Shown: in pieces, positions 19,773 to 40,973 of the stretch
Numbering within the stretch: position 1 is the first letter of the stretch
How the letters are laid out: each line of letters starts with the position of its first letter
Assembly: GCA_008632985.1 (NCBI GenBank)
Contig: QPGO01000011.1
Coordinates: forward strand, 620,001 to 684,000
DNA: 64,000 bases
Reading direction: 5' to 3'
Source: Psammoneis japonica
Taxonomy: Eukaryota
Made by a program: the position numbers and the translations under genes
Notes under the pieces: generated by a model
The model's database searches: none
Told to the model about the DNA's origin: nothing
The model's input: the letters and a program-made list of their open reading frames with translations, nothing else

Positions 19773-20979
19773 ACTTCATTGTTTGTTTACTTGGTCGCTT
19801 CTGCTGTCTATCGTTCTATGTTGCAAGCACCATAGCTGCATGCCTACACGCACAAAGCGAGCGCCACGTGCTGCACATCCAAGTTGCTTTTGTATATTTC
19901 AAAAAGAAGCAACAAACAGTCTCAAACTTCCATTGAGCGGTTCTTCACCAATGCTAGTAGCCGGGCATGTTTGTAGAAGATTGTGATGAAGCCTCAACTT
20001 CCAAATTCAGTTCAGAAAATTTGGATTTTCTGCACCCCACCAAAGACCCCACATCTGAGATCGTCCATTGGACTTTCAACCGAAGGCCCCTCCCATCCGC
20101 ACTTGTTGGATTCAAGTGCTGTTTTAGCTTGTCGGCATGTGCTGACAACTGGCAGAACACATGCATTCACTTTTTTTCATTCTGTTGCTTGTGTTCACAA
20201 TGCTCCTGACCGTGGCTGGGTTTTGCCCCATTGCAATCCATCCTGCCTTTTGGGACACCCCACTTTGCACTTGCCACAGGGCTTGTCAAGACATTCTTGC
20301 TGANNNNNNNNNNGGGGGGGGGGGGGCAAGTTCATGACGGGCCTTGTTGGCAAAGAGCCAACTGCACTTCTTGTTGGCAATGTCAGCACGTCAGCACCAA
20401 TTTTTTCACTGGGTTGCAAAGCAATCCAAGCACATGTCTGGGGACATCCATGATTTGGGTCCTGTTCCTCAAAGCAGTTTTTGCCAATTTCAAAGTGGGT
20501 TTTTGTTGGTCTTGTTGATCACAACATTGCCCTGCTTTCTCAAATCTGGATGCAATGGCAATTGAAAGCTGAAATGTTCCAACTTGAAGATGTGATTTTC
20601 TGTCTCAACAGACAAGAGGGCTCTGTTGTTCACAATTTTTCATTCATTTCCATGTCAAATTCTTTGTGACAGCTGCTGAACATCTTGTGCAGCACTGCAT
20701 GTTGAGCACAAAGAATGATTCCAAAAAAAATTGTTGTCACTTCTTTCAATTTGCAGTTTGCCATTGACGCTCACAGCAAAACAACAAAATGCTGTTTCCA
20801 GGCACCATCCCACCCACTCTGTTTGTGCCATTTTACCAAGTTTGCCAACATGCCATTCTCTTGTCCTTTGTGTGGCTTTAAAAATGATCATGCTGTCTCA
20901 AGTCACATCAGTCATGGACACTGCTTGGCTTCACAGATGCAGTTGGCCATGAGAACAAAGCCTTGTCACTGTCCTGTTT

Positions 20980-21255
20980 TGACAGAAATTGAAGGCAAAT
21001 GGCAAGAATTCAAACAATGACTCCTTGCTGCTTTTTAAACAGCAGATGAGTCTCCGCTCAGAGACCGTTGCAGGAGCCGAAAGACGTGTAAGTCGGCATG
21101 ATCGGGCTACTGTCATCATTCTTGTGAGCCTTGTGGCTCGAAAGCAAACTACATCGCGCGCGAACGCGCGGAACCAAAGCACACAAAACTGTGTGCGGCA
21201 AACTAAACAGCGCGCGATACTTCGCGCGCATCCAAATCCTGTTCAAATCCTGTCA
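20980..21255 (-). repeat. 3' LTR of copia-1
   Basis: Direct repeat of 27803-28078 with 12 substitutions. Confidence 0.97.
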
Positions 21256-24200
21256 CTCCCCAGTTTGCTTGAGGAGCCACAGAAACAGATTCGACTTCGG
21301 ATGGGATGAAGTTCCAGAACATAAGAGGGCGGAGAAGGTCCCAGATTTGGGAGTGACCCCAATGCTTGCTGAGAATGTCAGCAGGATTGCGGGAGCCCTC
21401 GATGAAGTGGAACTCAAGGCAACCAGAGGCAATTGCCTCACGCACACGGTGGAACGATAGTGCGGTGTGTCGCTTGTGTAACTTGGAGTGCGGGATGGTG
21501 GCACTGTCTACAACCGACTTGTTGTCACCGAACATGTAACTAACATTACGGATCGGGACGCCAAGGCAGCGCAGGGTGATGCGCAGGTCGACAATCTGCT
21601 CGACACAATTCCTTGCGGCAACAAATTCAGATCCGTAGGTTGCAGTCTCCACGGTGGCTTGTTTCTTGGAGAACCAATCAGCCGGGAATTTGTTGAGGAA
21701 GTGGAGCATTCCCATGACAGAGCGTCCGGTGAGCATGCAATGGTGCAAGTTTGCATCGACGTAGTGGGTGGCAGTGACGAACTTGCCAAGGGGCGGTGGA
21801 GCGTCCTTCGGGATCATCTCTTCTGCTTCACCACACACGGAATGCATCCATTCATAGGCCGGAGCAGGGAGATCCGAACAGTCGGGCTCTTCCGTACGAA
21901 CGCGGAGAGCACCGTGTCGCATCTTGGAGAGGCACCCACAGACGCGTTTGGCACGATCCAAGTGGCCTTGACGGGGCGCAGCTCGGAAGCTAGAGAGTGA
22001 CATGACAGCCGTGGTAATGTCAATTCGACCAAGGGACACTGCCCATTGGAGTGAACCAACAAGAGACTGGAACTTGTGAATGCCATCGGGTCCCAGTAGT
22101 TCGGAAGTGTCCAGTTCAGGGTGGTCACCCTTCTCTAGAGGTGACAGGGCGTTGGTGGCAGGTTTCTCCCCAAACAATCGGGCGTAGCTGTCGACCATGC
22201 GCTCGATGTACTTGCGCGGAGACAGGCACAAGGTTCCGTCGGGGTCCCGGGAAAAGTCGCAACCCAGATGGAACTCAATGGGTCCCGCACCCTTGAGCTT
22301 GAACTTGCACTTTTCCGTGAGAGTATCGATGAAAGATTGAGGGTCCTTCATGGCAATGGCGAGGTCATCCACATAAACGCCAATGTATTCATAGTGGTCG
22401 CCGTTCCTGCGCATCCAAATGTCGGGTTCGGCGCGGCAGGGGAAGAAGCCTTCAGCTCGCAGGCAGTCGGCGAAGCGCTCGTGCCAGCGGAGACCGGAGC
22501 TGCGAAGTCCATACAGTGCCTTGTGGATGACAAGGATGTGTCCCTCGAGTTTGCCAAATTCGGGTCCAGCTACAATGTAAAGCTTCTCCTTGGTGGTGGC
22601 TTCAAGGCAGGCATTGCCAATGTCGGTGGCCCATGTCTCCAGCTCGTTGAGTTCGGCCAGGAAAATCATCAGCCGAAGGCCACGGAGGGAGACTGCTCCG
22701 GAGTAAACACTGTCGACAGGTACATCCGTGAGGTGCCCGTCGGCTACGAGTCGTGCCTTGTGGCGACCGTCGTGTTTCACGTCGAACACCAGGTGCACTC
22801 GGATCTTCTTGTGTCCCGCAGGAGGAGTGGAAGACTTGAAGGGCCCGCAGTCATGGAAGACTTCGTATTCGTCGAGTTGGTCCATCTCGAGATTAGTTGC
22901 GTCTCCCCACTTGCGGTTGCCGTTGCGTTCGTCTAGTGACATGGCGTGTTTGTAGTTCCGGGGAACTTTGTATCCGTACTTGTAGCGAGGTGCAGTGCGG
23001 AAGGAGCGAAGCTTGGCTTGGTTGGCCATGCGAAATAGCTTCTTTTGGCGCCTCGCGATAGTGCGGAACCGCTTCCAGCCATCCGTGTCGAGGAGTCCGT
23101 TCTCTCGTGCATAGATGGCACAGGTGACGGGGTCGTCCTTGGCGATGATGGCAAGAGGCTCGGACGTGATCTCCCCACTTTCCCATTCAAGCATGATGTT
23201 GTAGCTTGAGCCTTTCCAGGTTGGGTCGTGAGGCTTCAGAGGTCCTTCGTGTGATGCGATGCGTCGAAATTTCCAAATGGTGGTGTCTTCGTCTTCTTGC
23301 TCAATGTGATTCATGATGTCATTGCAAGCAAGGACTTCCTCGTATTCGTCATTGTTGACAGAGCAGACGAACTTAGTGAGCTCGGGATTGCCGTTCACTT
23401 TCCATTCGTGGTCTTCGACGGCCTTGACGATGCGAGCTCTGTGGCGTTGTCCATCCTCTTGTGGCTGCATGAGGAAGGTACGTCCAATGATGTCTTGCGG
23501 ATCGAAAACTGGCATCTTGGGTGTCCTGATCTCCCCATCAGTAGAATCGACGGGGTTGTCGTCATGGCGAGATTTGATGATGGGTTCAGGTGGCTCCCCA
23601 TCAGGAGGATCAAGACGCAGGTTTCGAACGGCAGGATCGGGGCAGCGGAGCGAACGTTGGACCGGGAGGATCTTTTGAGTCTCGTCAGATAGGATCTTGA
23701 AGGTCATCTGGTGGCCGACGTGCTCAGCAATGCCAACAAAGCGTCCACGCAACTCACGGGATTCGGACGGCCAATCGGAGTCATCGAGGTGGAAGTGCAC
23801 TGGTTCCCACCAGTGAAAGCGAAGCAATGGGCTGATGTCCGGGGTGGATCCAGTGAGAGTCTCGAGGGGCGTGCGCCAGTGGAGACGTGGGGACGCTGTG
23901 TGGTTGAGCATGAAGCACACGCACATGAGCGCCAGGAGCCATGTGTGGGCGGGCGAACCAAAACGGTCCATGACAGTGTTCGCCATGCGCTTCACGGTCT
24001 GGTGTCGACGTTCGGCAAAGTTTTGGTGTTGCTGGTGAGGCTCACTTTGCCAGCTGGAGATGAAGAGGGCGCGCAGGATCCCGAGCACTTTGTTGCTGAT
24101 CTCAACTTGAGCACGGTCGCTAATGAGTTTGGATGGTGCACCACGTTCACGGATCTGATCCTCGAGTGTGTTGACAAACTCTTTGTCCGTCTTAGTGCCG

Positions 24201-26876
24201 TAGACGTCAGTGACGGTAGACTCGGTGCCAACAAACAGTTGGGCGCTGGTGCAACCAGAGTCGACGGCCGGGGTGTCGGCAAAACGGTGTCAGTGGCGAC
24301 AGGCTCGTTGCGGCGGTGCACATTAAGGGCGGGGTTGGGTGATTTGTAGGCCTTGCGAAGGTGTGCACCGGCGGGCATGCGGGCGTACTGCGTGGTGCAG
24401 TCAAAAGTACGACGGACCGCATCGGCAGGTAGGAAGCCAAAGCAAGGCCGAAGAGACTCGAAGGGGGGGTCCTTGGGCTTCACAGTGCGCTCCGGAGGTG
24501 GAACGTCAACGCCCGTGGGGTCACTCGCATGCAGATGACACTCGTAGAACACGTCGTCGTTCGGAATGAGGTGATCATCGAGGGCGGACGCGTGATCGTC
24601 AGACAAGGAAGCGGACAAGATGGTCTCGTTGACAACGACACGGTGACGGCAGTTGCCGCATTCGTCAAATGGGTTGGCAGTGGGATCGTCCTGCAGGTCA
24701 GAGATCGCGTCGCACCACTGGTCGTCGTCAGTGACAGAGTGATCGAGGACGGAAGGGTCCCATGTGTCATCACCGGTGAGGATGACATGGGGCAGGGTGT
24801 CCCATTCGGCGTCAGTGCAAGGGCGCATGGCAACATAAGGCAGGCCAGCCTTGATGTCAATGGGGATGACATGGCCATCAGGAGTGGCAATACGTTGCAA
24901 GCCGTTGGGCACCTTGACAGAGCGATCGTTGACATCCTGTTTGCACCATTCGAGCTGGCCGCAGGAATGGATGGTCTTGCCCTTTCCCGTGCATGCGCTG
25001 ATGGAGGATGGCGATGACGGGACCACGCTGGGTCTCAATGACGGCACCAGCGGTGACAATGGGGATGTCCACCAATTGATGATCGTCAATGCCCTGAACG
25101 TCGACTTGGCGAGAGGTGCGTGCGATGACGCGAACGTCGTCGCCAGCAATGCCGCCGTTGGCCCCACGATCGACTAGAGCGCCAGTGCGTGTGGAGCGAT
25201 GAGCAGAGGCAGAGTAAATGACATTGTGGTTGTCAACGCGGCGGCAAGTGCGGCCGTTAAGTTCCATGTTATCTGCAGAAGCTGGCGGGGTAGAGGAAGC
25301 GGCGGATGGCCCGGTCGACTGGCATTGGGGGCTTGGTTAGGAGACAACAGACGTTGCAGATCACCGGGTGGCAGTGGCTTGCGCTTGGTGAGGTGCGCCA
25401 GGATGGGATCATCCGAAGTGGCGTCCACATGTGCAGCGGAGTCACCACAGTCAGCAGGAGTCGTGTTGGACAAGTTGACATCACCGTCACTCCCAAGGTG
25501 TTGGTCGTGAAGGTTGGCCGTAACAGACTCATGGCAGTTGCTGGCTCGCGGGTTGCGGGGAGGCGGGCGAGAGTGCTCAAGGATGATCGCCTTGGAGGAA
25601 TCGGGCAACGAATCCCAGAGCCGTTGGTGGTCGGGAGGGAGACGTCTCCATTGGACACCGGTGAGGCTGGGACCACGGGTGTGGGCAGCATTGGCTTGAA
25701 GGACGTCAACGTCACTGTCAATGTCGTAGAACACATCGTCGGACGGTTCCTCGGAGCAGACGTCGTGGGCGTGTGTGGCGCGTCGGGGAGCTCGAGGTGT
25801 CGTCTTGGGTTGAAACGTGCTGTCGCACTGAGCTGCCGCGGAGAGGAGCAAGCCACAGCATTGATCGCATGTGAGGCTCTTGCCACTCTGCGTACGATGC
25901 TGATCAGCTTGGTTCTTGACAGCACGGAGTTCCTCGACAGGGTGCACGGCATTCTCGAGCATGACGCGCTTCTGTCCTTCAGAGAAGTGGTCGCTGGCGG
26001 GGATGAGTGCCTCGCACTTGCGCAACTGATCTTGCCAATGAAGGATGAACCCGTGGGTCGGACCGTTCCAAGTGCCATCACCAAGACGTGCGGTGGTGAG
26101 GTACGTGAGCAGGGTGGAGGACTCGATGGATGCACGGGTGGAGGCAAGCGCGCATTCAGACAAGGAGCGGCAGACGGTCTGTGCGTCAGAGGACCCCACA
26201 TTTTCGCGAATGAGAGCCTTGCCCTTGTCGGTGAGAAGGATGCGTTCGAAGACGGCGAACATGTGCTTTTGCTGTTCAGCAAAGAGCAGTTTGTCTTCGG
26301 GGCTGGTCGGTTTGTACGACGAGTCTAGAATGCACTCGACGTCTTGGGCACGGGCTTGTGCCACAAGTGAGGTGTGCCAAGTGTGCCACTGCTTGTCGGA
26401 TTTGAGAGCCGTGAAAGCGGTGGGATCACGCTTGATGCCTCGCTTGAAGTCTCGCACCGGGTCGCGTGCCTTGGTCGGGTTGGTGACATGTGGAGGTGCA
26501 AGGGGTGAGCTGCCGATGGACACAGAGGACATGCAGTCCGGGCTGAGGCGGCAGGCAAGGAACTCGTCATGCGTGAACAAAGAGGAGTCGTTGGCAACGT
26601 CAAGACCTTTGTGTGCTTTGACAATGTACAGACTGGGCTGGTGCTGCCAACATGTTCTTATAACCACGAGGCAAAGGGATTGCATTGGTGCCGTTGTCGC
26701 ACACAAGCGAGTCGATTTGGGACGGCATGAACGTGAACAGTTCCTGATGCGAGTCCGTGCCGTCTTGGGCCAAAGCCAAACGAAGAGGACTCCCAGCACC
26801 TTGGGCAAGCACGGTTCCAACAACGTGCTCGAAACCATCGATTTGTTGCTGACGAGTGAGAACCATGGTAGACAAA
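21203..26876 (-). pseudogene. Copia-1 gag-pol polyprotein (frameshifted)
   Basis: gag (RDFKRGIKRDP...), protease ALVDRGANGG, integrase SEPHQQHQNFAERR, RT KALYGLRSSG and YIGVYVDD, RNase H YVDA...GDNKSVV...NPADILSKHW. Confidence 0.9.
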
Positions 26877-27802
26877 AGTGGTGTCAGGACAATCAATTCT
26901 GATTGGGAAGCGAAGGTAGACTTGAAACTCGGGTGAGAACAGACTTGACTTGAAATGGACTTGACTTGAAATCTTGAACTATCTTAAAATCAGAAGTCGC
27001 CGGGCTTTGCTATCCCGTTCGTTGTTGAGTGCTAAACTTCCCATCCGGTCCGTAGAGTTGTGCCGGCACGTCCGAACCCGCAGCCAGTGGCGCTTTGGGT
27101 TGCTTGCGAGCGGAGCAGCGGGTTGTAAACCCCTGCAGGCAAGCTGACCAGAGGTGGACAAGACCCCCGAACCGTTCTTATTTTATGTCGGTTGGATTTC
27201 CCGATCAGGCTGGCCAGTTGACGCAGGCGTTGGGCGCTGTGGACGAACGAACAAACGCGGGAAAAACACCCTCGCCCCAACGCAGGCTGCAATCACGGCT
27301 GCTTGCTCTCACAGTCGTCCTCGTGGACCTAGCAGAACTGTAGAGCACCAGCAGTCCGGGGTAGATCAGGTACAATGGACTCGGTGTGCTTGTAGAGTGG
27401 CAGCAAAACCGCATCCGAAGAGTGGGTACAAGTTCTTGGCCGTGAAGATATGCATATATGTATGTCTTCAGCGACGAAGGTCCTTGAATGTGTAGGGTTC
27501 TTGACCGTTAACCGATGAATGGGTATATCAAGGGATGAGGATCAAGGATAGACTTGGATATGACCGTTGAATGTATGTCTTCAGCGATCAAAGGTAGTAT
27601 AATCAATCCAGATATTCAGCGGTAAGGAGACTTGACGGTGACGTTAAATTCCTGCCGATGCCTGGTATTGAACGCGCGTAGACTTGCCGATGTATGTAGA
27701 ATATATACGGAGGTCCACGCAGAATTGAAATAGCGTCGTCGGTAAATCAACGACGACGATGGCGGTTGCTCAATGGGTTGACAATGAGCAAGACTGTTAA
27801 TC

Positions 27803-28078
27803 TGACAGAAATTGAAGGCAAATGGCAAGAATTCAAACAATAACTCCTTACTGCTGTCTAAATAGCAGATGAGTCTCCGCTCAGAGACCGTTACAGGAGC
27901 CGAAAGACGTGTAAGTCGGTATAATCGGGCTACTGTTATTATTCTTGTGAGCCTTGTGGCTCGAAAGCAAACTACATCGCGCGCGAACGCGCGGAACTAA
28001 AGCACACAAAACTGTGTGCGGTAAACTAAACAGCGCGCGATACTTCGCGCGCATCCAAATCCTGTTCAAATCCTGTCA
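27803..28078 (-). repeat. 5' LTR of copia-1
   Basis: Direct repeat of 20980-21255; retains 16 TpA sites. Confidence 0.97.
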
Positions 28079-28199
28079 TGTTTGCCACAAGGGTGGGCTG
28101 GGCTTTGATTTGGAAGATTCTGCATTTGCTCATCTTTCTTGGCATTGCAATGGAGGTGGCTCTGATGAAACATGACACACTCATCCAAAGCAATGAGAA

Positions 28200-29000
28200 A
28201 GAGCATCCAACAGCCCATGAGGGCTTTGCAGTCAATGGGAAACAGCTCAAAGGTTGATCCCTTGGTCAGTTGGTCAGCAAGTTGACCAGCAGAGCTGATT
28301 GGCTTGATCTTGTTGTCCAAATGTTCCACTTTCAAGCAATGACAGTGACATGGAATGCCAACATGCTTGGTCCTGGGGGTGAGCTTTGGCATGTGTGCAA
28401 GCTGGAGGCAGGCAGCAATGTCTTTGTGCACAACTGAGGGAGGCAAGCTGGTTGAGACAATGAGAGACTTGTCAGTGCCTGCACTGGTGAGAGCAAAGGC
28501 CATGGAATGTGTTGCACAGGTGGCATTTTGGGTGGGCTGCACATGAGCATGCACATCAATTCTTTTTTCAAAATTTCATGAGCTGGGGTGAGATTTTGCA
28601 TGCCTTGGGAGAGTGCGGCAATTGCAGAGAGCATTGCAAGGGTCCACAGCTTGGACAACCAAAGAATTGGATGCCTGCTTTGGCAAATGACACAGCCGGT
28701 GCAAGACTTGACACTTGTGAGATCTTGTCCATTTTTCAACACCAAAAAGTCCTGCAAAGTCTGCGCCCACATGATGATCAACTTGCTGCTCCTCAGTTGG
28801 CTCTCCAAAATCAGCCCCTTGTCTGCAGCATCCTTGTGGCAATGCAGGACTTGCTTGGTGGCAGCAGTGCAGGATGCCCTTGGATGATTGCAAGAAAAAT
28901 GAGCAACTTGATGGGACGTGCAGGCGACATCTGGGCAACTGTTACAGCCAGATGCAAAATTGGCAATTGACCTGTGATTGCAGCAGACTGCCCGTGCAAA
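28200..29000 (-). mobile_element. Older copia RT/RNase H remnant adjoining the copia-1 insertion
   Basis: PDVACTSHQVAHFS, GADFAGLFG, PKLTPRTKHVGIPCH and QLADQLTKG; heavily degenerate. Confidence 0.75.
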
Positions 29001-29094
29001 AGAATGCAGCCACTGCAGCAGCCACTGCAGCAGCAATCAATGTCAAGGTGTGATTGCTGGAAAACACATGTGACAGTGTCAAAGCAGTGTGGAC

Positions 29095-29320
29095 CTTGTC
29101 AGCAGGAAAACCAAACACCAAAGCAGGTCCACTGACAGCAAATGTGGTGATGGAGTTGGGTTCTTTTTGATTGAACCAGCCTGTCATGGAAGAAGCACAA
29201 CAAAAAACAGCATCCAGTTTTTTTGTGAGACAGAAAGCATCAAAAACATGTGGGGAGGGCAGTTGATGCTCAAGTGTGTCAATTGTTGCAGAGACAAAAC
29301 ATTTTGGTTGCCTCATGTCC
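29095..29320 (+). repeat. TpA/CpG-depleted copy of a dispersed sequence also present at ~42225-42340 and ~43640-43735
   Basis: AGCAGGAAAACC...GGAGTTGGG...GATTGAACCAG...AAGCACAACAAAAAA is shared with 42.2 kb; TTTTGTGAGACAGAAAGCATCAAAAA...GACAAAACATTTTGGT is shared with 43.65 kb. Confidence 0.75.
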
Positions 29321-30079
29321 CAAGTCTCAGCACAGTTTCCCAACCAGCTTGCATGTCAGCTTCCATGGGTGCAACCACCACACAAGGAACACAATGGCAG
29401 CACTCATGTTTTGGCACATGTTGCAATGAATGAAGCTGGAGCTTGGGGCACAGCACTCCTGTTCTCCCCAGAGTGCTGACATGTGCTCTCTGCTTCCTTT
29501 TCTTTTGGCAAGACCCTGTCAAAAACCAGGTTGATGTCCCACTTGAGAAGAGAGTGCAAAAAAAACCACACCAACTCATTAAAGTCCTGCAGTGAAAGAG
29601 CAAATTCTCAGCACAGAGTTGCTCGTGGTGCTGAATGGTGGTGCAAACAAACACAAGCATGCCACCAGTGTCCAAATGAGCTGGGGTTTGCTGGTTTCTG
29701 AGGTCAGTGAAGAACAAGAACCTCACTTTTTTGTCTCATTCTCCAGCAAGCTGCTGCTTTGGCAGCCCTTTGACTCCCATTCTGAGTGGCGAGTCTTGCC
29801 AGTGCATCCATGTGTCACATTGCATGTGATGAGAACAGCATGGTGAATGCTGTCACTGCAATGATGGCTGCAACAGAAAAATTGAGATGACTTTCAACTC
29901 AAATTCTGCTTGGTGCACAGCCTGTCCATTGAACTTGAAATGAAGAAAGGTCCATGGTGTCACACATGATTTGGGCACTGTTGTTGGTGTTTCAGGAGTG
30001 ATCAAGAGTCAAGATGTTGTTTTTGTTTTCAGCACAGGAAGAGGAGGAGATGCTCCATTGCACACACATGGCACCCCAC

Positions 30080-30730
30080 TTCAAGGAATGGACAGATGGG
30101 CAAGACTGACTGGACTCCAAGAAAAGCTTGCAGCTGATGCTGGGCTTTAAAACGAGGGTGGCTTGCTGTTCTCAGTGCTCAAAACAGATTTCCAGTCTGC
30201 TGCAATGTCAGCAAGCAAGAGTGCTGCTCTTTTCTTTCACACAATTCATGGACACTTTTTGCCTGAGGATTGAGCTTTGATGTTGGTGCTTTGCAACACT
30301 TTTTCCAGTCTGGGGAGCAACGGTGTGCCACCATGGTGCATTTCTTGAACCCAGGTCCCGTGCATGGCTCAATTTTGCTGCAACTCAAGCACACGTCACA
30401 TTGGACTGCCTGCCCATCACCATGTGACAGTTCTCTCATTTTTTCCCCAACATTCTCAGAATCTTCATGAAGAACAGACCTGTGGCCCATTTTTGCACAT
30501 GTCTCATGAGTGCAGTCTCAGCAACATTTCCCACCAGTTGACAGAAGTGTTCATCTCAATGAGCCAGGTCTGCTGCAGAGGCAACTTTGACCAGTTGATG
30601 GATCTGACATGAGTGACTCAAGAACTGTGTTTGTTTTGCCACAGAAAACTCATGTCTTGTGTTCTGTGTAGAAGCTGCCAGATCTTCTTGTGAGTGGCAA
30701 ATGATGGCATTGCTCAACTTGGACTCTGCT
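30080..30730 (-). pseudogene. TpA-depleted paralogue of the MYND pseudogene at 11370-12130
   Basis: Colinear blocks, e.g. CTGGACTCCAAGAAA, GTTGGTGCTTTGCAACACTT, GACCAGTTGATGGATC and CTCAACTTGGACTCTGC. Confidence 0.75.
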
Positions 30731-33230
30731 GCAAAAAAATTTTGGGATTTCTTGGACTTTGAACAACAAGTTGTGTGCAGCCTCCTCCCCCTTTTGAGCA
30801 CAAACATGTGAGCTTTCAAAAAAGGGCCATCTTGTTGAATTGCTGAATGATTGCAGTGGCTGCCACAGATGTCACATCAACAGTTTCTTCATCTAAATCC
30901 ATTTGAAGATCACAGGAGGGCAAGCTGTACATGAGAGCTTGAGAGAGTGCCCAGTTGACACTGAAGGAGTCCTGTTCAAACAAACATGCGGCAAACCATC
31001 CAACACACTCATTGTCCTCTGCATCTTCAATGCTGTCATCCACAAACTTGCACCTGCTGCAGTGATTCTCAGCCTTTTGTCTTTCAACCCCAGTCTTCTT
31101 CATTTGAACACTTCATCCAATGCTCACAAATGGTTTCAGCACAGATGCCAAGGTTTTTGTCCATGTCTGGAAACTGACGATGCTGCTGTGTGTGGTTGTT
31201 CCAAATGAGCCCAATTGGAGTGGGGCACTCAAGATGTCATCCAATCTGCTCAAAACCAACTTTGTTTTCCCATGAGGATTGCAACCATTCAGACAGAAAC
31301 AAGCCGGGCTTGGCAACAACAACACACAGTCTCCATGTGAAAGCTTTCAAACCCCTCACTTTTTGCAGCAGAGACACCAGCTTGAGAATTCTTGCCACAC
31401 CAGCACAATGAGATGACCAACAAGTGGCCACGACTCCTGACTGAGGGCTCTCTTGCCAATTTCTCCACAATGTGTGCAAAATCCACAACAGATGAATGCC
31501 ACTCAACTTGTGAGAAGGCAGGATGAGCCCCTCCAGAAAAAAAGAAAATTTCCAAAGCCTTTTCTTCACAGTCATCTCCTGACACAACCAGGAAAATCTG
31601 GTGTCCCCACACAACTGAAATGGCACAATCCAAAGCCTGTTGAGGCAATGGACAAATTGTGTCAGTCCCAAGGTGAGGGAAAGTCATGGCTTTTTTTAAG
31701 AGTCATGCCGGGAAATGTGGGCACGTCCACAAGCATCATCGCACATGATGAAGAAGTCCTCTGCTGGCAAATCCCTGTGACTTGCTTTTTGAAGATTGAC
31801 CTTTGCCAGTGCAAAGCTGACAGTTGAGAGGTTTTGTTCAGCATGAAGATGACAACCGTGAGCTTTTGTTTGGCTTGAAGCTGCCACGATGAAATTTTCC
31901 TGGAACGTTTGACATTTTGAAATTTGCCAGAAACGAGGGACAGATGCATTGGGGAAAGGGCCCAAGGGGGACTGCCGACTTATTTTTTCCGCATTTGTCC
32001 TAAAATTGGCGATGTGTTTGAATGCGTTCATTTGCATTGTCAATTTTAAATGCAAGAATTGTTCGATCGCCCACGAAAACAAGAACATCACGCACCGCGA
32101 TTGAAGCACAACGATGACGGCAATTGCGCTGTCTCTCAAAATTGGCCCGGTGGCACAAGGGACAAAAGCACACAAATCAATCTGCACCACATGACGACAA
32201 TGAAACCAATGAGTGTCCCTCGTGAGGTGACACTTTGCAACTCACCGCTCGTCGCGAACATTGTCATTGTCGCTCGTGATTTTGTCGTGTCATTTTCTGT
32301 CGCGACACGTCAAAAATGCAGAAAAACCCGGAAAAGACGTGCGGAAAAAATGAGCCAATGGGCCGCCTTGTCTGTCTGTCGCATTGTGCACGCAGCGAAC
32401 ATGACAGCAACACAACCTGCAGCATGCATGCAACACAACAGCATCAACACCTCTGCATCATGCAGTGCAGTTGTGAGAAGATCACATGACTGCGATCAAC
32501 ACAGGCGCGGAACATGCCTTTGGGGGCCCAGCTGCGAGGAATGGAACTTTCCAACCGGAAGGATTTGGTCCATTCCCAGTGGAACGGGCAGACCTCGTTG
32601 ACAAGATTTTGTGACAGGCAGACCCATGGAAATCGACTCACATCAATGGATGCAAAGGAGCTGGGAAGATGACTCTGCTGGTGCAACTTGGTGAGAAACT
32701 AAGCTCGAAAAACAAGGAAGTTTACTTTTTTGACAGCGCAACAGATTTAAACCGAGAATCTTCCATCACTTTCGTGCGAGAATTGGTCCATTCCAAGAGG
32801 GAAGCTTTCATTCTGGTTGACAAGACTCAAACAATGTAGATGCTGCTCCCTTTTTCATTCTCCTCAAAAACAAAGACAGCCATCAAATTGTGACAATCGG
32901 CGCCAGCATTCCGGAATTCCAAACAGCATCTGCAAGATTCACACTCAAAATTGGCGCCGAACGTTTGTTCTTGGGCTCACCGGAAGAGCTTGAAAGCAAA
33001 GGGGTCATCAGTTGTTTTTCAAGCAAAGCAACGGTGGTGGACGCACAGAAGATCCGTGACCTTCTGATTTGTCTTTGCTCGTACGTTGGTGGTCACATCC
33101 ATCCGCTCATGTGGCTGGAGGAGTGACTCGTCCCCAGACTAGAACGCGAGTCAGTGGCCCAAGTGGCAGAACACTTCACATCACCCAGATTCCGTCAGGA
33201 AGAAGATTTCAAGCTTGTGTCTGAGCGAAC

Positions 33231-33701
33231 AGTCAAAGCTCGCATGTCCACGCAGCTCCGACTGCCTTCCTAACGTGTCGACTGGATGTCCACTCCAGAT
33301 CGATGCCTCAGGCAGAATGCAAGCAGACAGAATGCACCAACGAGCAGCAACGAGCATTTGGTCTTTCACAAAAGTGCCAGTGACCAAATTGCAAGCTGCC
33401 TAGACTGAATCTGCTGAATGCACCCAAACAGAGGTTGATCCGCAGGTTTGCACCAGAGACCAGTGCAAACTTCAGGGTTGGCCACATTCACAACAATCAT
33501 CCAAATGCTGCTGAACCAATCTGTGGTTGGTCCAACATCTGTGCAACACCTGTGATCTCCAAAGCACCGCCCATGATCCCCAAAGCATTCGGCTTGAGAA
33601 TCGAGTCGACGTGGCGCGAAAAGAATTTCAACAAGAATTCCGACTGACAGAAGCACAGACACAACAGAGAATCTGGGTCGGTGGACAGATGAACCATGAC
33701 T
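33231..33701 (-). repeat. 3' LTR of copia-2
   Basis: Direct repeat of 40503-40973; differences are mostly TG/CA and CG/TG swaps. Confidence 0.93.
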
Positions 33702-36700
33702 CTCCCTCTCATTCACAGATTCCAGCAACCAACAAGAAAATTGCAAACGAGAAAGCTCACACAATTGGTGCAAGTTCAGAGCAAAGCTCCCACATCTTGA
33801 CCGAGCCACAACACACAACAAACAAAGGAAGCGATGCTTCCAAAGTGCTGCCACCCTTGGACCTTCAACCGGTTGTTCTCGAAGAGCTCTCGAGTCAAAG
33901 GCTTGGCAAGACAATCGGCAAGTTGCTCGGCCGATTCCACCTTGATCGCATTGAACTCATCACAATGCGACCAGAACCAATGCCACTTGACAAGAAAATG
34001 CTTGGCGCGATTGGTGATGCGGTGGTTGGCAGCCAGGCAGCAAGCGCCTTGATTGTCTTCGAACACACGCGCATGAACCGAAGTCCTGAGATCTTGGGAG
34101 ATGTCCAGGGTAGAGACGATCTCAAGGAGCAGGTTCTTCAAAGGCAGGAGAGTCCAAAGAGCACAGGAGGCGGCTTGACACTCGGCTTCGAGGGTGGAGC
34201 AGGAAACAGCTGACTGGAGCTGCGATTTCTACACCAAAGGGCATCCACTGAGAGTGATGATGTGTCCGGTGCGAGACCTGATGGAGTTTGGATCAGAATC
34301 TGCTTCGCAGCAATGGAGACCAGCAAAATCAGCATCAACCCACAAATCTCTTCAAGTGGCGGACCAGAGTCTTGACGGCAGTGGCGCGTGACTGCTTCGG
34401 GTTGCAATTGAAGTGTGCAACCTGACTGACGGCAAGGGAAATGTCAGGACGGGTGTTGGTGGACAAATGTGGAAGCACTCCAATGACGGAGGGATGGCTC
34501 CAGTCCTCCTGCATGGGATCTCCGTCTGCATCAGTGCCGAGGGCTTGGGACGCCGCGGGGAGCAAGTTTGGTTTGCCATCAACCAAGCCGGCAGCTGACA
34601 GGATCTTGTCAATCAACCCCTTCTGTGTCAACTTGACAGTGCCATCGTCTCGCCTTTCGAACTTGATGCCCAAGAACTTGGTAAAACTGCCCTCCTTCGT
34701 CAATTCAAATCCTTTCTCGTGCAGCTGAGATGTCAACTGATCAAGGGTGGACTCCTGCGCTGTGCTGATCCCGCAATCGTGACACACAGGCAGACCATGC
34801 AATCATGGTGGAGCAGGAGACATTGGTTGCACTCGCTTTGGATGAAACCCAAGTCCAAGAAGGCTTGCAGACAATGTTCATGCCACAACTTTGGAGCCGA
34901 AGAGAGTCCACAGAGACTCTTGACGAGCTCAAGACAAGTCTCAGGTCCTTTTGTCGAGCTGAAACCTCGTGGAAGATGAATCCAAACTGGTTCTTCCGCA
35001 GGAAGTGCTGCTTGAACGAATGCAGACTGGAAATCGGCGGATGCCACATGCCATCCAAGAACAAGACTCAATGCCAAAAACACTCGAACTGCACTCCAGG
35101 CCACAACCGGTGCATGAGTGTCAAACAGACTTCCTTCCTGCAGATCGCCCCAACAACAGTGGCGAGCCTTGTGCTTCTTGATCTCGCCTGAAGGTGAGCA
35201 CTTGCGACGAAATGCCCAAGTGCCAGGAAGGATCTTGGTTTGAGCATCAGATGCAGGTGCCTCGACCCACTTTCCTTGATGGACGAGTGCTGCAATCTCA
35301 ACCTCAGCCGCTTTCAACCACTTGTCGCGATCGGAAGAGCGCATGGCCTCGTCCCACGATGGTGCACCCGGATCCTTGACTTTGCGCGCCGACGCCCAAT
35401 GTGCGGTGGGAGCAGTCATGGATGTGTTGCAACCGTGGTCAAACTTGTGTGCACAATGGAAATCAACAAAGTGGGACAAGCATCTGTGTCCCTGAGATCC
35501 ATCACATCCAAACTGCTTGGGTGCAGTGCGACTCTGGGTGGAACGACAAACTGGGGTTGGAGAGGGGCGTTGTGCACTGGGTGGAGCCACAGGTGGCAAC
35601 TCCCTCTCTTGACCGAGATCCGAAGAAAGACTTCAAGGGGCAGGAGGCTCCCTCTGAGGACTTGGTGATGGATTTAAGTTGGCAGCAGGTGCTCTCTCCC
35701 TCTGAGGCGAGTCTGAAACCACAGGTTCAGCAGGAGACTCCAAAGGAGGCACAGACTCCACTGCAGGGACCGGAGGTTCCACAATGGGACTCGAGGGGAC
35801 CTCAGGAGAAGATGCTGGTGCCTGAGTGGCCAGAGGAGGGACCTGTGAGGGTTTGGGAGGCGACGGGCGGGTGACGGTTTCTCAGATTTCCTCGGAGCGG
35901 CGCTCACATTCAGGGCATTCTTGATGGATGTCGATGTCAGCCTGCTCTTCATCATCCACAGTGCATTGATGCACACTGTCTCTGAAGAGAGACGTCCATT
36001 CCAGAGACCCAATGGCAGGTGACGAGCCAGCATCGGCAGGAACCGTCGCAAACCAATCATCAAAAACGACATGGAATTGTGGAGTGATGGCTCCCGTTTC
36101 AAGACTCAAGACTGGCAGGACTGACAAGGCATGCTCGGGGCTGAGTCCCACACAGACATGCCAACTCACACGGGGTTTCCACTTTGGCAGTTTCTTTCCA
36201 TCGGCGAGAGTTTTGTCAAGAATGTAAACAGGGCACCCCCAAACATGACAATCCTGGAACCGAGAGTGGGGGTCATGCGTCTGGGTGAACACATCCTGTG
36301 GACTTGGACCCGCAGATGGGTCTGGCATCGCATTGTAAAGCACAACAGCGTGGTCCACAGCCAAAGGCCAAAGAGTGGCATCCGCAACATCAGGCCAATG
36401 AATCGCCGTGTGCAACATCACACTTCTCGCGATCGACATCGCAGTGTGCATTGCTTGTTCACAAACCCCATTGTGATGGTGAGCTCCTGCACCGGCGTGC
36501 TTTGAAACTTGTGCAAAAGACTCCAAGTGAACTCTGAAATTGGCCGACGTGAATGCCTTTCCTTTGTTGCTCAAACATTCTTGGGAAATGACACCACAAT
36601 CACGACAATGGGCCTCAAACGCGTTCTTGGCCGTCAAAGTTTCATGGGTGTTGAGGTGAGTTTGATGTTGAACGTTGACACAACCGGATGCATGATCCAC

Positions 36701-39700
36701 AAAGATTGCTCCACCTGAATGCTGATGTTTTGTGTTCTCCTTTCCAAAAGTGTGTTTCAGATACCATGCGTGGAACAAACAAAGTGATCAACCAATGCTC
36801 ATTGACCGGGGAACAGCTGGTCTTTCTTCAAGGCTCCAGCTCGATCCTTGACGACACGAGAACTCTTTCCAGGGCTGGGACGGCATTTTTGTTTTCCACA
36901 TTGGCATGCAGCACAAAGGGGCAGATGATGATGCGACAAGCGCATTCATGCAAATGACGGGTGCCCTCGGAGTGGGACAGGACTCCCACACGCATCAAAA
37001 ATTGCACCTTTTGAAAGCTCAGATGCCCGAGACGAAAGTGCCAACGCAGTGGCTCCTTTTCAGCAGGTGAGACATTGTGATTGTGCTCCATTGTCGTCGA
37101 CAACGTCAAATGAAACTCCTCACAAATTTGTTGACTTGCTTGATTGCACAGGCCCATCCAACCGGCAAGTTGGTTGAAGGTTCAACCAACACTTCAACAT
37201 CACGCCTGTGTCCTTGTTCGCGATTCTTGGATCCACTGAGGACAGCACGGTCCGACAGCAGCTCAATGGACTCGTCCGAGTGCGTCTGCAAGAGACTGGT
37301 CGTGCTCAAGAGATGAGCCTTGGACTTGGGGATGCAGCAGGCCGGCGGAACCTTCAGGGTCCGAAGCACCCCAGCAACATTGACAAAAGACCAAGCAACG
37401 TGTCCAACACCTGCCACATGGAGTCCCTTTGCGACACCTTGGAGCCGGACAGTGACAGGTGGTTTCTCAAGAGGGCTGACAAAGTCGTCCTTGCAAGGTG
37501 AGACCGACACGCTTGCTCCTGAGTCCCAAATGACCGGGAAAGTGTGCTCTTCAACCACTTCCTTTGTCTCCTCAGGACTCGTAAAAGCCGCCTTGAGAGC
37601 ACCAGCAACAGAAAGCAGAGGTGACGGGACGTCAGCATTGGCCAGACAAGCCTTGGCTGCTGGGGAGCAGACAGCGTCAAGCTGGGAGCACGTCAAACCG
37701 TGCACAACGTTCAAACCAGCAGGGCGACACGTGGGTGCATTGAGGTTCCGACGACCTCAATGATGAATGTCGGGACCCCTTTTTAGAGCAGCACTCTTGC
37801 AACGTCTGGTGCCCTTGGGATGACCTGCCTCTCCCTCTTGACTGAGGAGAGGACGTGCGCACGTGAAGGTGAGTGACCGCTCAAAGGCCTTGACCTCCTC
37901 ACTGAGGTCGCACAACTGATGACGCTGCCGCTGCTTGATGTCAGGCGCCCCACAGGCACAATGGACGAGAGAGGGATGCCTGGGTGGAGTGCGGCGGCGT
38001 CCGCAGCGAGGCTGAAGCTCCCTCAGGCGATGACGCCCCCAACGTTCGCGATGCTTGGAGAACTTGGTTCCTTGGCGTGTGGCCCAGCGGGGAGGAGGAG
38101 GAGGAGCACGCAGGGCTTTGGCACGAGCATCACGCTCAAACTTAGATGGCAAGAATGCAGCTGCTAGAAGCACCAGGAACCAGAGAGCGGGCAAAGGACA
38201 GAGACGCCAGTGTGACGAGACGTGCGACGCAACGACCGTCACGAGCCAGATCATGGCGTTGACTCCAACAATCCACCAGTTGGCCGGAAGCTGGGAATGC
38301 CAACATCCCAAGGCAGCACAGAGCAGCAGAGATGCAAGAGGGTGGATCAAGGTGAGCACAACCTGAAATGGTCCAAGTGGTGCATCCTTGAAGCCCAACT
38401 CAAAGTCGAATTCCACGCACCACACTCCAGGATCCAGGAAGAGGGTGTTGGCCTGCTGAGTCGGCACAGGAGGTGATCCATCCTTCTGCCCATGCTTGGC
38501 AGTGCCGTGAGTGGTCGACCAACGACGGCACTTGGCACACCAGTGCCAAGTCTTGTCCTGCGCAACCTTGGACTCAGGTTGTCCGGGACGAGGCGCGACC
38601 TTCTTCCAGTTGCACGCGACGCCACCGTTGCCGTTGCCTCCATTGCCACCCTGATTGCCGTTGCCACTGGAGCGGGTCCTGCCCCTTCCACCTTGTCCTC
38701 CACCATTTTGCCCAGGGTTTGAGCTGCCTTGGTTGTTCCCAGTGCCCTCACTGGACCTGTCAGGACAGTCACGTGCCCAGTGTCCGAGCTTGCCGCAGTT
38801 GTCACGGAGAGTTTTCCGGAGTCTTCTTTCGGGGAGCAGCCTTCTGCTGGAAGAGAGCATTGAACTGGGCCTGAGTGAGTGGAACTCCAGCCGTTTGACA
38901 AGTGGCAGAGGGATCAAGTGCTGGGTTTCCAAAGGCTCTGGGAGCGGCTTTGGAATCCATCGCGTGCTTGACAGGGTCCCACTGCGTGTTGTTCTTGAAC
39001 AAGCGGCAGCGGTCCAGGATCTTTCCAATGACTTGAGAGCAGGTGAGGTTCTTGGACGCAAGGTGTCGTTTTGCATCCGTCTTAGACTTGTGCGCCATCT
39101 CAACCAGTGCCTCGCTCAAGTTCTCTTTCACAGTTCGAAGAGCGTGCTTGAACTGCTGACCGTTTTTGCCATCCCCGCCAGCTTCCAGGCATGCGTTGAC
39201 CAAGGTAAGCGTCAGCTTGTGGTCGTGCTGACCCGCAACATCTGACTCGTGGGCCGCAGTCTTGAACTCAGACAGTGGCTCGGAGAGATCCTGACCAGCA
39301 AACTGGGAGGGCTTGAGTTCCTCCAGCTGTTTTTCGAGTTGCTTGAAGCGTTTGATGGACGTGCTCTGGAGGATCACGATGAGAGCCATCCAGACTTTCG
39401 GAAAGCAATCCGACTCCTCCGTCTCCAGATCCAGCTGTGCGGCCAGGCCAGCCTCCAAGGAGTTCTTGAGAAACTCAGTGGCGTCCCTGTCATTGGATTT
39501 GTTGCATGAGTCACACTTGGCGAGTTGAGGTGTGACAAGATGGGCGACTCTCGATTTGGAACACCGAGGATGTCCTTCAATGCAGGACGTCACAGAAGTT
39601 GAGTCCTCGGGGTCCTGCAGGCAAGTCACCGCATCCAAACCGCAGTCCTTGAGATGCTTCATCACGTTCTTCTCAAAGGTTGCAAGGTCTCCCTTCTTGG

Positions 39701-40502
39701 CGAACTTGGTTGAAAGTCTGGCAACGCAGCAGGCCTTGCTCTTCTGGGCGGAAGAAACGTGGTGGGAGCGATGCTGATTCGGAGACGTTGGACTGGAGTT
39801 GGGAGTTTCTAGCCTGGACCAATCAGCCTTGGGTTTCCCACCAGTCCAAGCAACTTTCTCAGTGGAGCCAATGGAGACAACCCCCCCCCATCTTGGGAGC
39901 CTTGGGTTTGTAGACCTTTGTCTTCGGAATCGCCACGGCTGCCACAGCAGCCATGGCCTGAAGAGTGCGACGTTCGTCGTCCGTCACACCAGAGCTTGCG
40001 GCGGGCTCGTCATCATCCGAGTCGTCATCCGAATCGTCTGGGCGATGTTCCAAGGGCGGAACAGGCTTGTTGTCTGGGTCATTGGGGTCCTGAGGTGGTG
40101 GATTATCCTCCGGTGGAGGTTGATCCTCAGGAGGCTGGTCCTCAAACACTTCGGGGTCGTCAGCCATGTCCGACAGCGCGCTTGAAGCTGTCAAGTTGGG
40201 CCAGTCATCTGGGATGTTCTCAATCAAGGAGCACGAGCTCGGAGAACTCTCTTGGGTCTCAGGAGGGCCACGGGGTGGAGCAGGGCCTGAGATGGTGCAC
40301 GCGCAAAATCAACAACAAACCTTCTGGTGGAACCAGCCATCCAGCTGACAGAGTCAGGCGCAGCACTTGATGTCAAGAGCATGGAGCGCAGCCAGTGAGG
40401 AGCGCTGACAGCATCAGAGCCATAGATGGGGTTGCTCTGGTTTGGGCGTCCCCAACCGGAAGTGTAGAACGTGTTAAGTTGCCCCAATTGGGCAAACCAA
40501 CC

Positions 40503-40973
40503 AGTCAAAGCTTATGTGTCCATGCAGCTCTGAGTGCCTTCCTAATGCATCGACTGGATGTCCACTCCAGATCGACACCTCAGGCAGAATGCAAGCAGAT
40601 GGAATCTGCCAACAAGTGGCAATGAGCATTTGGTCTTTCACAAAAGTGCTGGTGACCAAATTACAAGCCACCTAGACTGAATCTGCTGAATGCACCCAAA
40701 CAGAGGTTGATCCACAGGTTTGCACCAGAGACCAACACAAACTTCAGGGTCAACCACATTCACAACAATTGTCCAAATGCTGCTGAACCAATCCATGGTT
40801 GGTCCAACATCTGTGCAACACCTGTGATCTCCAAAGCACCGCCTGTGATCCCCAAAGCATTCGGCTTGAGAATCGAGTCGACGTGGCACGAAAAGAATTT
40901 CAACAAGAATTCCAACTGATGGAAGCACAGACACAACAGAGAATCTGGGTCGGTGGACAGATGAACCATGACT
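40503..40973 (-). repeat. 5' LTR of copia-2
   Basis: Direct repeat of 33231-33701, same length. Confidence 0.93.

Follow-up and report, generated by a model that had tools for sequence, protein, structure and literature searches.

The closest described counterpart of the pattern reported here is found in Bigelowiella natans, in whose mutation-accumulation lines an A:T-to-G:C hypermutation confined to TpA has been quantified (Mettrop et al., bioRxiv 10.64898/2026.01.13.699255). The figures given there, 211 mutations for 6169 TpA and 3132 generations, work out at about 1e-5 per TpA per generation. According to the available part of that preprint, the targets are integrated giant-virus and virophage DNA, and TpA accounts for 3.3% of dinucleotides in these inserts, compared with 6.0% elsewhere in the genome (bioRxiv 10.64898/2026.01.13.699255). 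The same part contains neither 'CpG' nor 'diatom', so that the order relative to CpG decay is not addressed in it (bioRxiv 10.64898/2026.01.13.699255); the literature searched yielded no description of a TpA signature in diatoms. The locus described below shares with B. natans the change of A:T to G:C at TpA only, which gives TpG or CpA according to strand and affects foreign or inserted DNA only, as well as the lasting depletion of TpA with an excess of CpA plus TpG. A further parallel may be an inconsistent activity, seen between lines there and suggested by the unequal LTRs here. Several differences exist. The rate was measured over generations in B. natans and is inferred from sequence here; the substrate is viral DNA there and consists of retrotransposons, a MITE-like element and pseudocopies here; and a TpA share of 3.3% versus 6.0% there contrasts with an erasure of 96-100% here.

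In silenced transposons, methylated CpG decays via deamination of 5-methylcytosine. The accessible part of PMC2806351 documents methylated CpG in LTR elements of another diatom. At the present locus CG likewise turns into TG or CA in repeats, genes having a CG observed/expected ratio (o/e) near 1; the difference is that the decay of the putatively methylated CpG lags behind a second process, which is faster and likewise ends in TG or CA. RIP, known from Neurospora and other ascomycetes, converts CpA to TpA and leaves TpA enriched. It is alike in being a dinucleotide-context transition hypermutation of repeated or foreign DNA that inflates copy divergence, and the available text on B. natans makes the comparison as well (bioRxiv 10.64898/2026.01.13.699255). 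As an explanation RIP was rejected, since it runs in the opposite direction: here TpA is destroyed (o/e 0.02-0.1) and G+C goes up. ADAR/APOBEC deaminases of animals edit retroelement nucleic acids with a neighbour-base preference, another instance of transition hypermutation of retroelements in such a context. Editing before integration would leave the two LTRs of an element identical, whereas they differ here; moreover, both strands are about equally affected, and pseudocopies that are not retroelements are hit too. New in the present results are the relative speed of TpA and CpG loss and the patchiness of both.

Dinucleotide composition of the locus

The window is a 64-kb stretch of Psammoneis japonica contig QPGO01000011.1; all coordinates are positions in it, and the piece treated in detail is 20980..40973. 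The counts come from this one window and one pair of metagenome copies, and many of them are small. TA o/e is 0.54-0.63 in gene stretches and 0.02-0.38 in repeat blocks; host genes are thus spared and inserted DNA is affected. In mutated copies TpA falls to o/e 0.02-0.1 while CA/TG rise to 1.5-2.2. When the window is cut into 128 intervals of 500 bp, TA alone is lost in 17 and both dinucleotides in 28; loss of CG with retention of TA occurs in none. Thus 28 of the 29 CG-lost intervals have fully lost TA too, the remaining one falling into an intermediate TA class. Plotted against each other, the TA and CG o/e values of window segments trace an L-shaped path. One of the 17 TA-lost, CG-kept intervals, 49001-49500, lies within a host ORF of low complexity whose composition is itself poor in TA.

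Copia-1: TpA loss with intact CpG

The features of the first element are as follows.

20980..28078, minus strand: copia-1, a Ty1/copia LTR retrotransposon (RVT_2 match, LTR pair, polyprotein relatives)
20980..21255, minus strand: 3' LTR; TA converted at 10/16 sites (plus strand: 6 CA, 4 TG), CG lost at 0/21
27803..28078, minus strand: 5' LTR; TA converted at 0/16 sites, CG lost at 0/21
27401..28078, minus strand: 5' LTR plus leader, unmutated; TA o/e 0.90, CG o/e 1.34
20975..20979, unstranded: target-site duplication TGTTT, partner at 28079-28083, from the flank sequences

With 135 TA and 526 CG dinucleotides, copia-1 has a TA o/e of 0.38 and a CG o/e of 0.98 (0.30 and 0.95 when the 5' LTR and leader are left out). 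About half of its TpA is lost and no measurable CpG. Over 276 nt the two LTRs show 12 mismatches. At ten of them a TA of the right LTR faces TG (4) or CA (6) in the left one; one transition and one transversion make up the remainder. As TA positions make up about 12% of the length, the chance of finding ten of twelve differences at TA is about 2e-8. Neither LTR has lost any of the 21 CpG that they share. Within the 3' LTR, the difference between TA loss (10/16) and CG loss (0/21) is significant (Fisher, 2.3e-5) and corresponds to a TpA/CpG loss rate ratio above 6.9 (95% bound), kept and lost TA being interspersed site by site. Between the two LTRs, TA loss differs sharply (10/16 vs 0/16, p = 2.5e-4), and the spared 5' LTR and leader directly adjoin fully erased old DNA.

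TpA loss is also ahead in the coding region, which aligns with polyprotein relatives over 5.5 kb in five segments with four frame changes between them. At conserved codons, Tyr has become Cys or His at 20 of 43 Y/C/H sites, versus at most 3 CpG-type Arg changes at 80 sites; in three intact relatives used as controls, 0-1 of 55-57 sites show the Tyr to Cys/His change. Converted Tyr sites number 3/15 at 22-23 kb and 7/9 at 25-27 kb, a contrast picked after the data had been seen, and a runs test on the Tyr sites gives no internal patchiness (p = 0.51).

Old remnants and a MITE-like element

Between the two copia elements lie the following features.

28079..31900, unstranded: old remnant, target of the copia-1 insertion; TA o/e 0.03, CG o/e 0.10; single-copy depth
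29950..30729, plus strand: erased copy of 11237-12130 (a before/after pair)
29098..29316, plus strand: erased copies of 42225-42340 and 43635-43738
31963..32370, unstranded: MITE-like element bounded by inverted repeats of 31 nt; TpA erased except for 3 (o/e 0.11), CpG intact (30, o/e 1.33)

The remnant resumes beyond copia-1 at 20314-20979. Three stretches within it are copies of unmutated DNA found elsewhere in the window. Of 35 parental TA none is kept, 28 being TG or CA now (15 TG, 13 CA); of 44 parental CG a single one is kept and 39 are TG or CA (22 TG, 17 CA). The MITE-like element, in contrast, has lost TA with its CG intact; its summed depth is 1642 versus about 62 for single-copy DNA.

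Copia-2: advanced TpA loss, partial CpG loss

The second element belongs to a copia lineage different from copia-1.

33230..40974, minus strand: copia-2 (RVT_2 and zf-CCHC matches)
33230..33702, minus strand: left (3') LTR; TA almost gone, CG lost at 0/17 sites
40502..40974, minus strand: right (5') LTR; TA almost gone, CG lost at 8/17 sites
40975..41800, unstranded: flank; TA o/e 0.02, CG o/e 0.39, its CpG loss at an intermediate stage

The whole element has a TA o/e of 0.06 and a CG o/e of 0.61; its losses amount to about 96% for TpA and about 29% for CpG. Its LTRs (473 nt) differ in 43 mismatched columns, comprising 14 TG-versus-CA doublets, one TA single, one TA-versus-CG difference, and eight places with CG on the left and TG or CA on the right; elsewhere there are two transitions and two transversions. 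The inequality in CG loss between the LTRs is significant (8/17 vs 0/17, p = 0.003). Because the left LTR has lost none of its 17 CpG, at most one or two of the 14 doublets are CpG-derived. The TpA/CpG rate ratio is about 3.7 in the right LTR and above 15 in the left, on the assumption that concordant double losses equal discordant ones in number. Conserved codons give about 10, Tyr having become Cys or His at 27/28 sites versus 16/56 for CpG-type changes of Arg (CGN to His, Gln, Cys or Trp). The alignments to relatives P0002 and P0016 fall into 4 to 7 frame segments and contain in-frame TGA stops. The target duplication is probably CGAAC/CGAAT. Copia-1 and copia-2 were also tried as mutual outgroups and set aside, as they showed no DNA-level similarity even in purine/pyrimidine code, the coded search covering the same strand only.

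Relatives in metagenomes

The comparison of TpA and CpG loss over many elements was made on the window and on metagenome relatives. One pair of metagenome copies, L034 and L036, aligns over 1732 positions with 7 transversions. At TA sites there are 26 single differences and 21 TG/CA doublets versus 5 kept sites, at CG sites 9 singles versus 97 kept, which gives a TpA/CpG rate ratio of about 32. Relatives L036, L034 and L014 have TA o/e values of 0.13-0.31 with CG o/e of 0.74-0.80, while relatives with intact long open frames mostly lie at TA o/e 0.54-1.0. Among the 49 metagenome relatives, nine combine a CG o/e below 0.5 with a TA o/e of at least 0.5; a TpA-first order is therefore no property of copia elements as such. 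From the 16 metagenome loci of at least 5.5 kb, six LTR pairs were obtained, of which four are perfect end overlaps of 123-127 nt, probably made by the assembly. The L010 pair has four differences, none at TA or CG, and the L001 pair (537 nt) shows an ordinary pattern, in which 2 differences are of the TA type, 4 of the CG type and 14 of other kinds. At some window sites that keep TA, 89-99% of the family depth reads CA or TG, so that the TA deficit of the copia elements could partly be inherited from mutated source copies.

Family-wide variant places over the whole 20 kb amount to A>G 132, T>C 143, C>T 114 and G>A 115, with coordinates for 40 of 575. This tally is in keeping with widespread TA erosion and infrequent CpG decay in the many copies and was not counted as evidence.

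Order and rate of the two losses

The original prediction had described copia-1 as having 12 LTR differences, much TA lost and its CpG kept, copia-2 as having more diverged LTRs with nearly all TA and part of the CpG lost and many TG-versus-CA differences, and the remnants at 28.2-31.9 kb as having lost both. The counts given above agree with each of these descriptions. Two separable processes converging on TG/CA, with the TpA one ahead, had been proposed on this basis, and the copia-1 3' LTR and codons speak for the same. Of the proposed age series, the order of TpA before CpG stands, but its age axis is not independently established, as the LTR divergence at unaffected sites is 2/276 for copia-1 versus 4/473 for copia-2 (p = 1.0). 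The order across elements holds in the window, where no 500-bp interval departs from it, and does not hold for 9/49 metagenome relatives.

It seems probable, at roughly 0.6, that two independent mutation processes act on silent inserted DNA, that both end in TG/CA, and that the TpA one is faster per site. Within elements, where age is equal, the TpA/CpG per-site loss ratio is roughly ten, with estimates between about 4 and more than 30. Relative to non-context LTR differences, an indirect measure, TpA loss would be roughly hundreds of times faster than background substitution. The order of loss shows that TpA editing is independent of prior CpG decay. TG and CA arise in nearly equal numbers (15:13, 22:18, 8:7 and 8:6). 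Runs of same-strand conversions, the trace of a processive single-strand deaminase, were not found in four of five series (p = 0.73, 0.59, 0.29 and 0.41), the remaining one giving p = 0.037. The first process would be a TpA-specific A:T-to-G:C hypermutator that acts on either strand of the TA step, site by site, with TG about as frequent as CA; most likely an enzyme deaminates adenine in DNA. Candidate enzymes would be ADAT2/TadA-like deaminases and TET/JBP-like dioxygenases. The second process would be ordinary CpG decay, most likely through deamination of 5-methylcytosine. In a new insertion TpA would go first with CpG still intact, and CpG would go later.

Neither process seems to keep time like a clock, and both seem spatially patchy: LTRs of the same age differ sharply in TA loss in copia-1 and in CG loss in copia-2. 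Any single rate ratio is therefore an average only. Runs tests on kept and lost sites give p = 0.037, 0.23 and 0.51 beside the LTR asymmetry in TA. As the two elements are inseparable at unaffected sites and same-age LTRs are unequal, the series orders exposure and not necessarily time.

Alternative readings

The strongest competitor, judged unlikely though by no means negligible, holds that the order reflects start time and not speed: a TpA mutator acts in bursts, early or whenever switched on, and CpG methylation follows later and unevenly. The unequal losses of same-age LTRs favour staging of this kind, as does the untouched 5' LTR and leader of copia-1 beside fully erased DNA. So does the finding that copia-1 and copia-2 cannot be told apart at unaffected sites, yet differ in CG loss (0/42 vs 8/34 LTR copy-sites). 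In B. natans, hypermutation occurred in only 11/15 lines, according to the available text (bioRxiv 10.64898/2026.01.13.699255), which points the same way. However, the site-by-site alternation in the copia-1 3' LTR resembles a per-site probability rather than a completed burst, and partial TA loss recurs in several independent elements (copia-1, L014 and L034). Staging predicts the same sequence pattern as a difference in rate, and sequence alone cannot separate the two.

That one editing complex or repair defect in silent chromatin converts both TA and CG, with TA preferred, is very improbable. The shared blocks and shared products would suit it, as would the near-complete nesting of CG loss within TA loss among the 500-bp intervals. 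The losses are uncoupled in space, however, CG being intact in copia-1 and in the MITE-like element despite their TA loss. They are also uncoupled between the LTRs of copia-2, which differ in CG loss, and across metagenome relatives, in which either loss occurs by itself. If both changes are deaminations, the altered base would also be the second of the step in one case (A of TpA) and the first in the other (C of CpG).

Erroneous base calls at modified bases, or elements that are simply TA-poor like the one host ORF mentioned above, can be dismissed almost entirely as explanations. The original prediction had taken the graded pattern as an argument against a simple sequencing artefact. An independent Logan contig of a public run matches 28074-32025 save for 9 letters and one gap in 3952, it is precisely at TA and CG sites that the members of LTR pairs and of parent/copy pairs differ, relatives with intact long frames mostly keep their TA, and conserved Tyr has become Cys or His in both copia elements. 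Six CG-versus-TG/CA differences separate the window from contigs at 28.7-32.4 kb, and in each of them it is the window that reads TG/CA; slips of base calling at methylated CpG could therefore account for a few of the apparent CpG losses.

Two processes of unequal speed thus remain the preferred reading. A bolder version is tentative and on balance doubted: a dedicated enzyme system might edit TpA in newly inserted DNA, being half done before neutral substitutions register, before and independently of cytosine methylation. If this were true, TpA editing would be a first-line genome defence and not a by-product of old heterochromatin, and the spared 5' LTR and leader of copia-1 would mean that the editor reads the local chromatin or transcription state rather than repeat identity or neighbourhood. 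The relative speed of TpA and CpG loss constrains any mechanism. A mutator with a single earlier report, from a rhizarian alga, would be extended to a second lineage and to transposons, and a natural TpA-specific A-to-G activity on DNA would be of interest to base-editing work.

LTR dating and open reading frames

The expected strong inflation of LTR dates is borne out. For copia-1 the K2P distance between LTRs is 0.045 at all sites versus 0.0073 without TA- and CG-derived sites, a 6.2-fold inflation; for copia-2 the values are 0.100 and 0.0085 (11.7-fold). LTR age is overstated 6- to 12-fold because nearly all early LTR differences stem from the TpA and CpG processes. Ages from LTR or copy divergence will be too old by this factor here, and wherever the same mutator acts, unless TA- and CG-derived sites are masked; with masking, copia-1 and copia-2, seemingly 2.2-fold apart, become indistinguishable.

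A further consequence concerns gene prediction by open frames. TpA erasure removes TAA and TAG and creates no stop. The two codons together number about 38 per kb in genes versus 2.6-4.5 per kb in erased DNA, and this depletion leads to long open frames on all strands of dead DNA. Public libraries contain Tyr-free 'proteins', e.g., P0041.

Inserted DNA and its composition

The window is eukaryotic DNA with a G+C content near 0.48, in which the gene stretches have observed/expected (o/e) ratios of 0.54–0.63 for TA and 0.85–1.07 for CG. In the blocks of inserted DNA, the TA ratio is 0.02–0.38, and TG and CA are up at 1.5–2.2. The elements concerned are:

20314–20979 and 28079–31900: old remnant, split by copia-1 and flanking it on both sides
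20980–28078, minus strand: copia-1, a Ty1/copia retrotransposon with 276-nt LTRs, target duplication TGTTT and an RVT_2 match
31963–32370: MITE-like element of 408 bp with 31-nt inverted ends (74% complementary)
33230–40974, minus strand: copia-2, a Ty1/copia retrotransposon with 473-nt LTRs and an RVT_2 match
33225–33231 (CGAAC, left) and 40972–40979 (CGAAT, right): probable target duplication of copia-2

The final C of the left copy sits directly before the A with which the LTR opens; a TpA to CpA change at this junction explains the one mismatch between the two copies. A DNA comparison of copia-1 with copia-2 found no similarity. The MITE-like element, multi-copy in the sequencing run (summed depth 1642 versus ~62 for single-copy DNA), has its TpA erased, with three left, and its 30 CpG intact. 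Short tandem arrays occur at 7833–8003, 8855–9012 and 44861–45205, all in unmutated stretches.

TpA loss runs ahead of CpG loss

The cleanest comparison is between TpA and CpG sites inside one element, where age is equal. As the original prediction had it, TpA is lost first, with within-element rate ratios from ~3.7 to ~32.

Table. TpA and CpG sites lost within elements, with rate ratios calculated from the counts; the values for the copia-2 LTRs and for L034 versus L036 (copies of a single related family, taken from two metagenome assemblies) take concordant double losses to be as numerous as discordant ones.
copia-1 3′ LTR: TpA 10/16; CpG 0/21 (Fisher 2.3e-5); ratio >6.9 (95% bound)
copia-1 coding: TpA 20/43; CpG at most 3/80; ratio at least ~16
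copia-2 coding: TpA 27/28; CpG 16/56; ratio ~10
copia-2 right LTR: TpA ~28/31; CpG 8/17; ratio ~3.7
copia-2 left LTR: TpA ~29/31; CpG 0/17; ratio >15
L034 versus L036: TpA ~110/146 copy-sites; CpG 9/212 copy-sites; ratio ~32

The copia-1 LTRs are mismatched at 12 of 276 columns, ten of which have TA in the 5′ (right) LTR versus CA (six) or TG (four) in the 3′ (left) LTR; the remaining two are a transition and a transversion, two bases apart. All 21 CpGs are intact in both LTRs. The yardstick for the coding region was a set of eight long-ORF metagenome relatives, a Tyr site being counted if at least four of them have Tyr. At 50 conserved Tyr sites, copia-1 has Tyr at 23, Cys at 14, His at 6 and other residues at 7; three control relatives have Tyr at 43–50 of 55–57 sites, His at 0–1 and Cys at none. 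Conserved Arg is retained at 77 of 97 sites, which lies within the 72/95 to 95/103 seen in the controls; Gln stands at just three. About half of the TpA of copia-1 is gone and its CpG loss is not measurable, which bears out the claim that this element lost much TA while keeping its CpGs.

The 43 mismatched columns of the copia-2 LTRs hold 14 TG-versus-CA doublets, one TA single, one TA-versus-CG difference, eight sites with CG on the left and TG or CA on the right, and four other changes. Taken alone, a TG-versus-CA doublet is ambiguous, since a TpA or a CpG ancestor can each reach it by one change per copy. The left LTR has lost none of its 17 CpGs, and hence at most 1–2 of the 14 doublets are CpG-derived (95% bound). 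By calculation, the doublets imply that ~28 TpA steps of the 473 nt were lost in both LTRs, a density close to that of the untouched copia-1 5′ LTR (16 in 276 nt). Set against relatives from an exhaustive protein search, copia-2 has Tyr at 1 of 34 conserved Tyr sites, Cys at 15, His at 12 and another residue at 6; its 75 conserved Arg sites include 40 CGN, 5 AGR and 16 His/Gln/Cys/Trp. The loss of nearly all TA and part of the CpG noted earlier for this element, with reciprocal TG/CA differences, is thus confirmed.

The remnant had been described as having lost both dinucleotides, and it has. Three of its stretches are copies of unmutated window DNA at 11.2–12.1, 42.2 and 43.6 kb:

29950–30729: copy of 11237–12130
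29098–29316: copies of 42225–42340 and 43635–43738

None of 35 parental TA survives (15 TG, 13 CA, 7 other) and one of 44 parental CG does (22 TG, 17 CA, 4 other). Transversions number 41 in 982 aligned columns (4.2%), and the remnant alone is clearly older than the copia elements. In the largest pair, the "parent" has TG or CA at 16 sites where the copy has the other of these two products; the explanation is either a change in the parent as well or descent of the copy from a different paralogue.

Across segments, the shares of TA and CG in the TA+CG+TG+CA pool trace an L-shaped path.

Table. TA and CG shares by segment.
copia-1 5′ LTR and leader: TA 0.25; CG 0.26
rest of copia-1: TA 0.06; CG 0.30
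MITE-like element: TA 0.03; CG 0.28
copia-2: TA 0.014; CG 0.20
copia-2 flank: TA 0.006; CG 0.11
remnant: TA 0.008; CG 0.02

Among 128 windows of 500 bp, CG loss with TA kept occurs in none, TA loss with CG kept in 17 and loss of both in 28, with CG at an intermediate level in 11; several of a further 17 milder windows (TA reduced, CG kept) sit in host genes. One of the 17 TA-lost, CG-kept windows, 49001–49500, was rejected as hypermutated, its TA-poor composition being that of a host ORF (48171–51425, minus strand). This low-complexity, Pro/Ser/Ala/Gln-rich ORF of 1084 aa has an AT skew down to -0.28, 1.7% Tyr and 0.4% Cys, and no Pfam family was found for it.

The L034/L036 alignment (1732 columns, 7 transversions) has 5 TA kept in both copies, 26 TA singles, 21 TG/CA doublets, 97 CG kept and 9 CG singles. 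In these two and L014, another metagenome relative of copia-1, Cys or His replaces 44–70% of aligned Tyr, with normal Arg retention, so organisms sampled at other places have the TpA process too. Copia elements clearly do not all follow the TpA-first order: nine of 49 metagenome relatives have CG o/e <0.5 with TA o/e ≥0.5, and none has lost both. The hosts of these nine may lack the TpA process.

Age, patchiness and strand pattern

The graded losses had been read as an age series. The order of TpA before CpG stands, but the ages of copia-1 and copia-2 are not separable, LTR differences outside TA- or CG-derived columns being 2/276 versus 4/473 (p = 1.0). The age axis of the series is not independent. 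Moreover, neither process is a clock: in LTR pairs identical at insertion, TA loss is 10/16 versus 0/16 in copia-1 (p = 2.5e-4), and CG loss is 8/17 versus 0/17 in copia-2 (p = 0.003). The copia-1 5′ LTR and leader (27401–28078) have a TA o/e of 0.90, yet adjoin fully erased DNA, so the spread of erasure from silent neighbouring DNA is not a sufficient account.

Kept and lost TA sites alternate in the mutated copia-1 3′ LTR, TG and CA products are ~1:1, and strand runs are absent in four of five series. This fits a process that strikes duplex DNA one site at a time, on either strand, better than it fits RNA editing before integration or a processive editor of single strands.

Summed depth is 67,000–142,000 for the copia-1 family, versus ~62 for single-copy DNA, and 283–1108 for copia-2. 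At four TA sites of the window copy, 89–99% of family contig depth reads CA or TG; the window copy may have gained TA there by ordinary C-to-T change, or mutated source copies may have passed on TA losses. That the 5′ LTR is intact suggests that this copy may have come from a source with little mutation. Frame breaks are similar in the two elements: by tblastn, copia-1 has four frame changes between five aligned segments, versus three to six in copia-2. Other family copies carry 1–2 extra bases at 24281, 24996–24997 and 25309; the window copy thus has three frameshifting deletions, which coincide with three of the four frame changes.

Agreement with contigs from a public run

Four runs of one sample contain the studied stretch. 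A 4617-nt contig of single-copy depth (61.9) spans 28074–32025 with nine other letters and one gap, and supports the earlier argument against a simple sequencing artefact, although the run is possibly from the same sample as the assembly and the agreement thus not fully independent. The nine differences listed for 28.7–32.4 kb comprise six with CG in the contig and TG or CA in the window (28784, 30626, 31143, 31843, 31973 and 32377), one CA versus TA and two others. The decayed form of the six is always in the window; allelic variation or base-calling errors at methylated CpG may account for them.

Relation to known hypermutation

The TpA signature of the inserted DNA is like that of Bigelowiella natans, for which it is reported that, in two viral regions of mutation-accumulation lines, A:T to G:C made up 230 of the 231 changes, all at TpA, with hypermutation seen in only 11 of 15 lines (10.64898/2026.01.13.699255). 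Its authors suggest an ADAT2-like deaminase as an untested proposal; a term search of that text returned neither CpG nor diatoms. Diatom LTR elements are reported to be CpG-methylated, and the passages concerned do not mention dinucleotide bias (PMC2806351). Searches at the level of titles and abstracts turned up no account of TpA erasure for any diatom. The present analysis adds the speed of TpA loss relative to CpG decay, the asymmetries between LTRs of the same age and the extent to which dating is in error.

Consequences for dating and gene prediction

LTR-divergence dating is strongly inflated, as predicted: the K2P distance is 0.045 at all sites versus 0.0073 at non-context sites (those outside TA- or CG-derived columns) in copia-1, a 6.2-fold inflation, and 0.100 versus 0.0085 in copia-2 (11.7-fold). 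Between 20000 and 42000, TAA and TAG together occur 4.5 times per kb in copia-2 and 2.6 in the remnant, versus ~38 in genes; TGA occurs 31–55 times per kb. The scarcity of TAA and TAG leaves 36 stop-to-stop frames of at least 150 aa over these 22 kb on both strands, and erased DNA with long open frames is a trap for gene prediction. P0041, a copia polyprotein of 2061 residues in a public library, has no Tyr, 3.7% Cys and 4.5% His, and seems to come from an element that was called as a protein even though its TpA had been completely erased.
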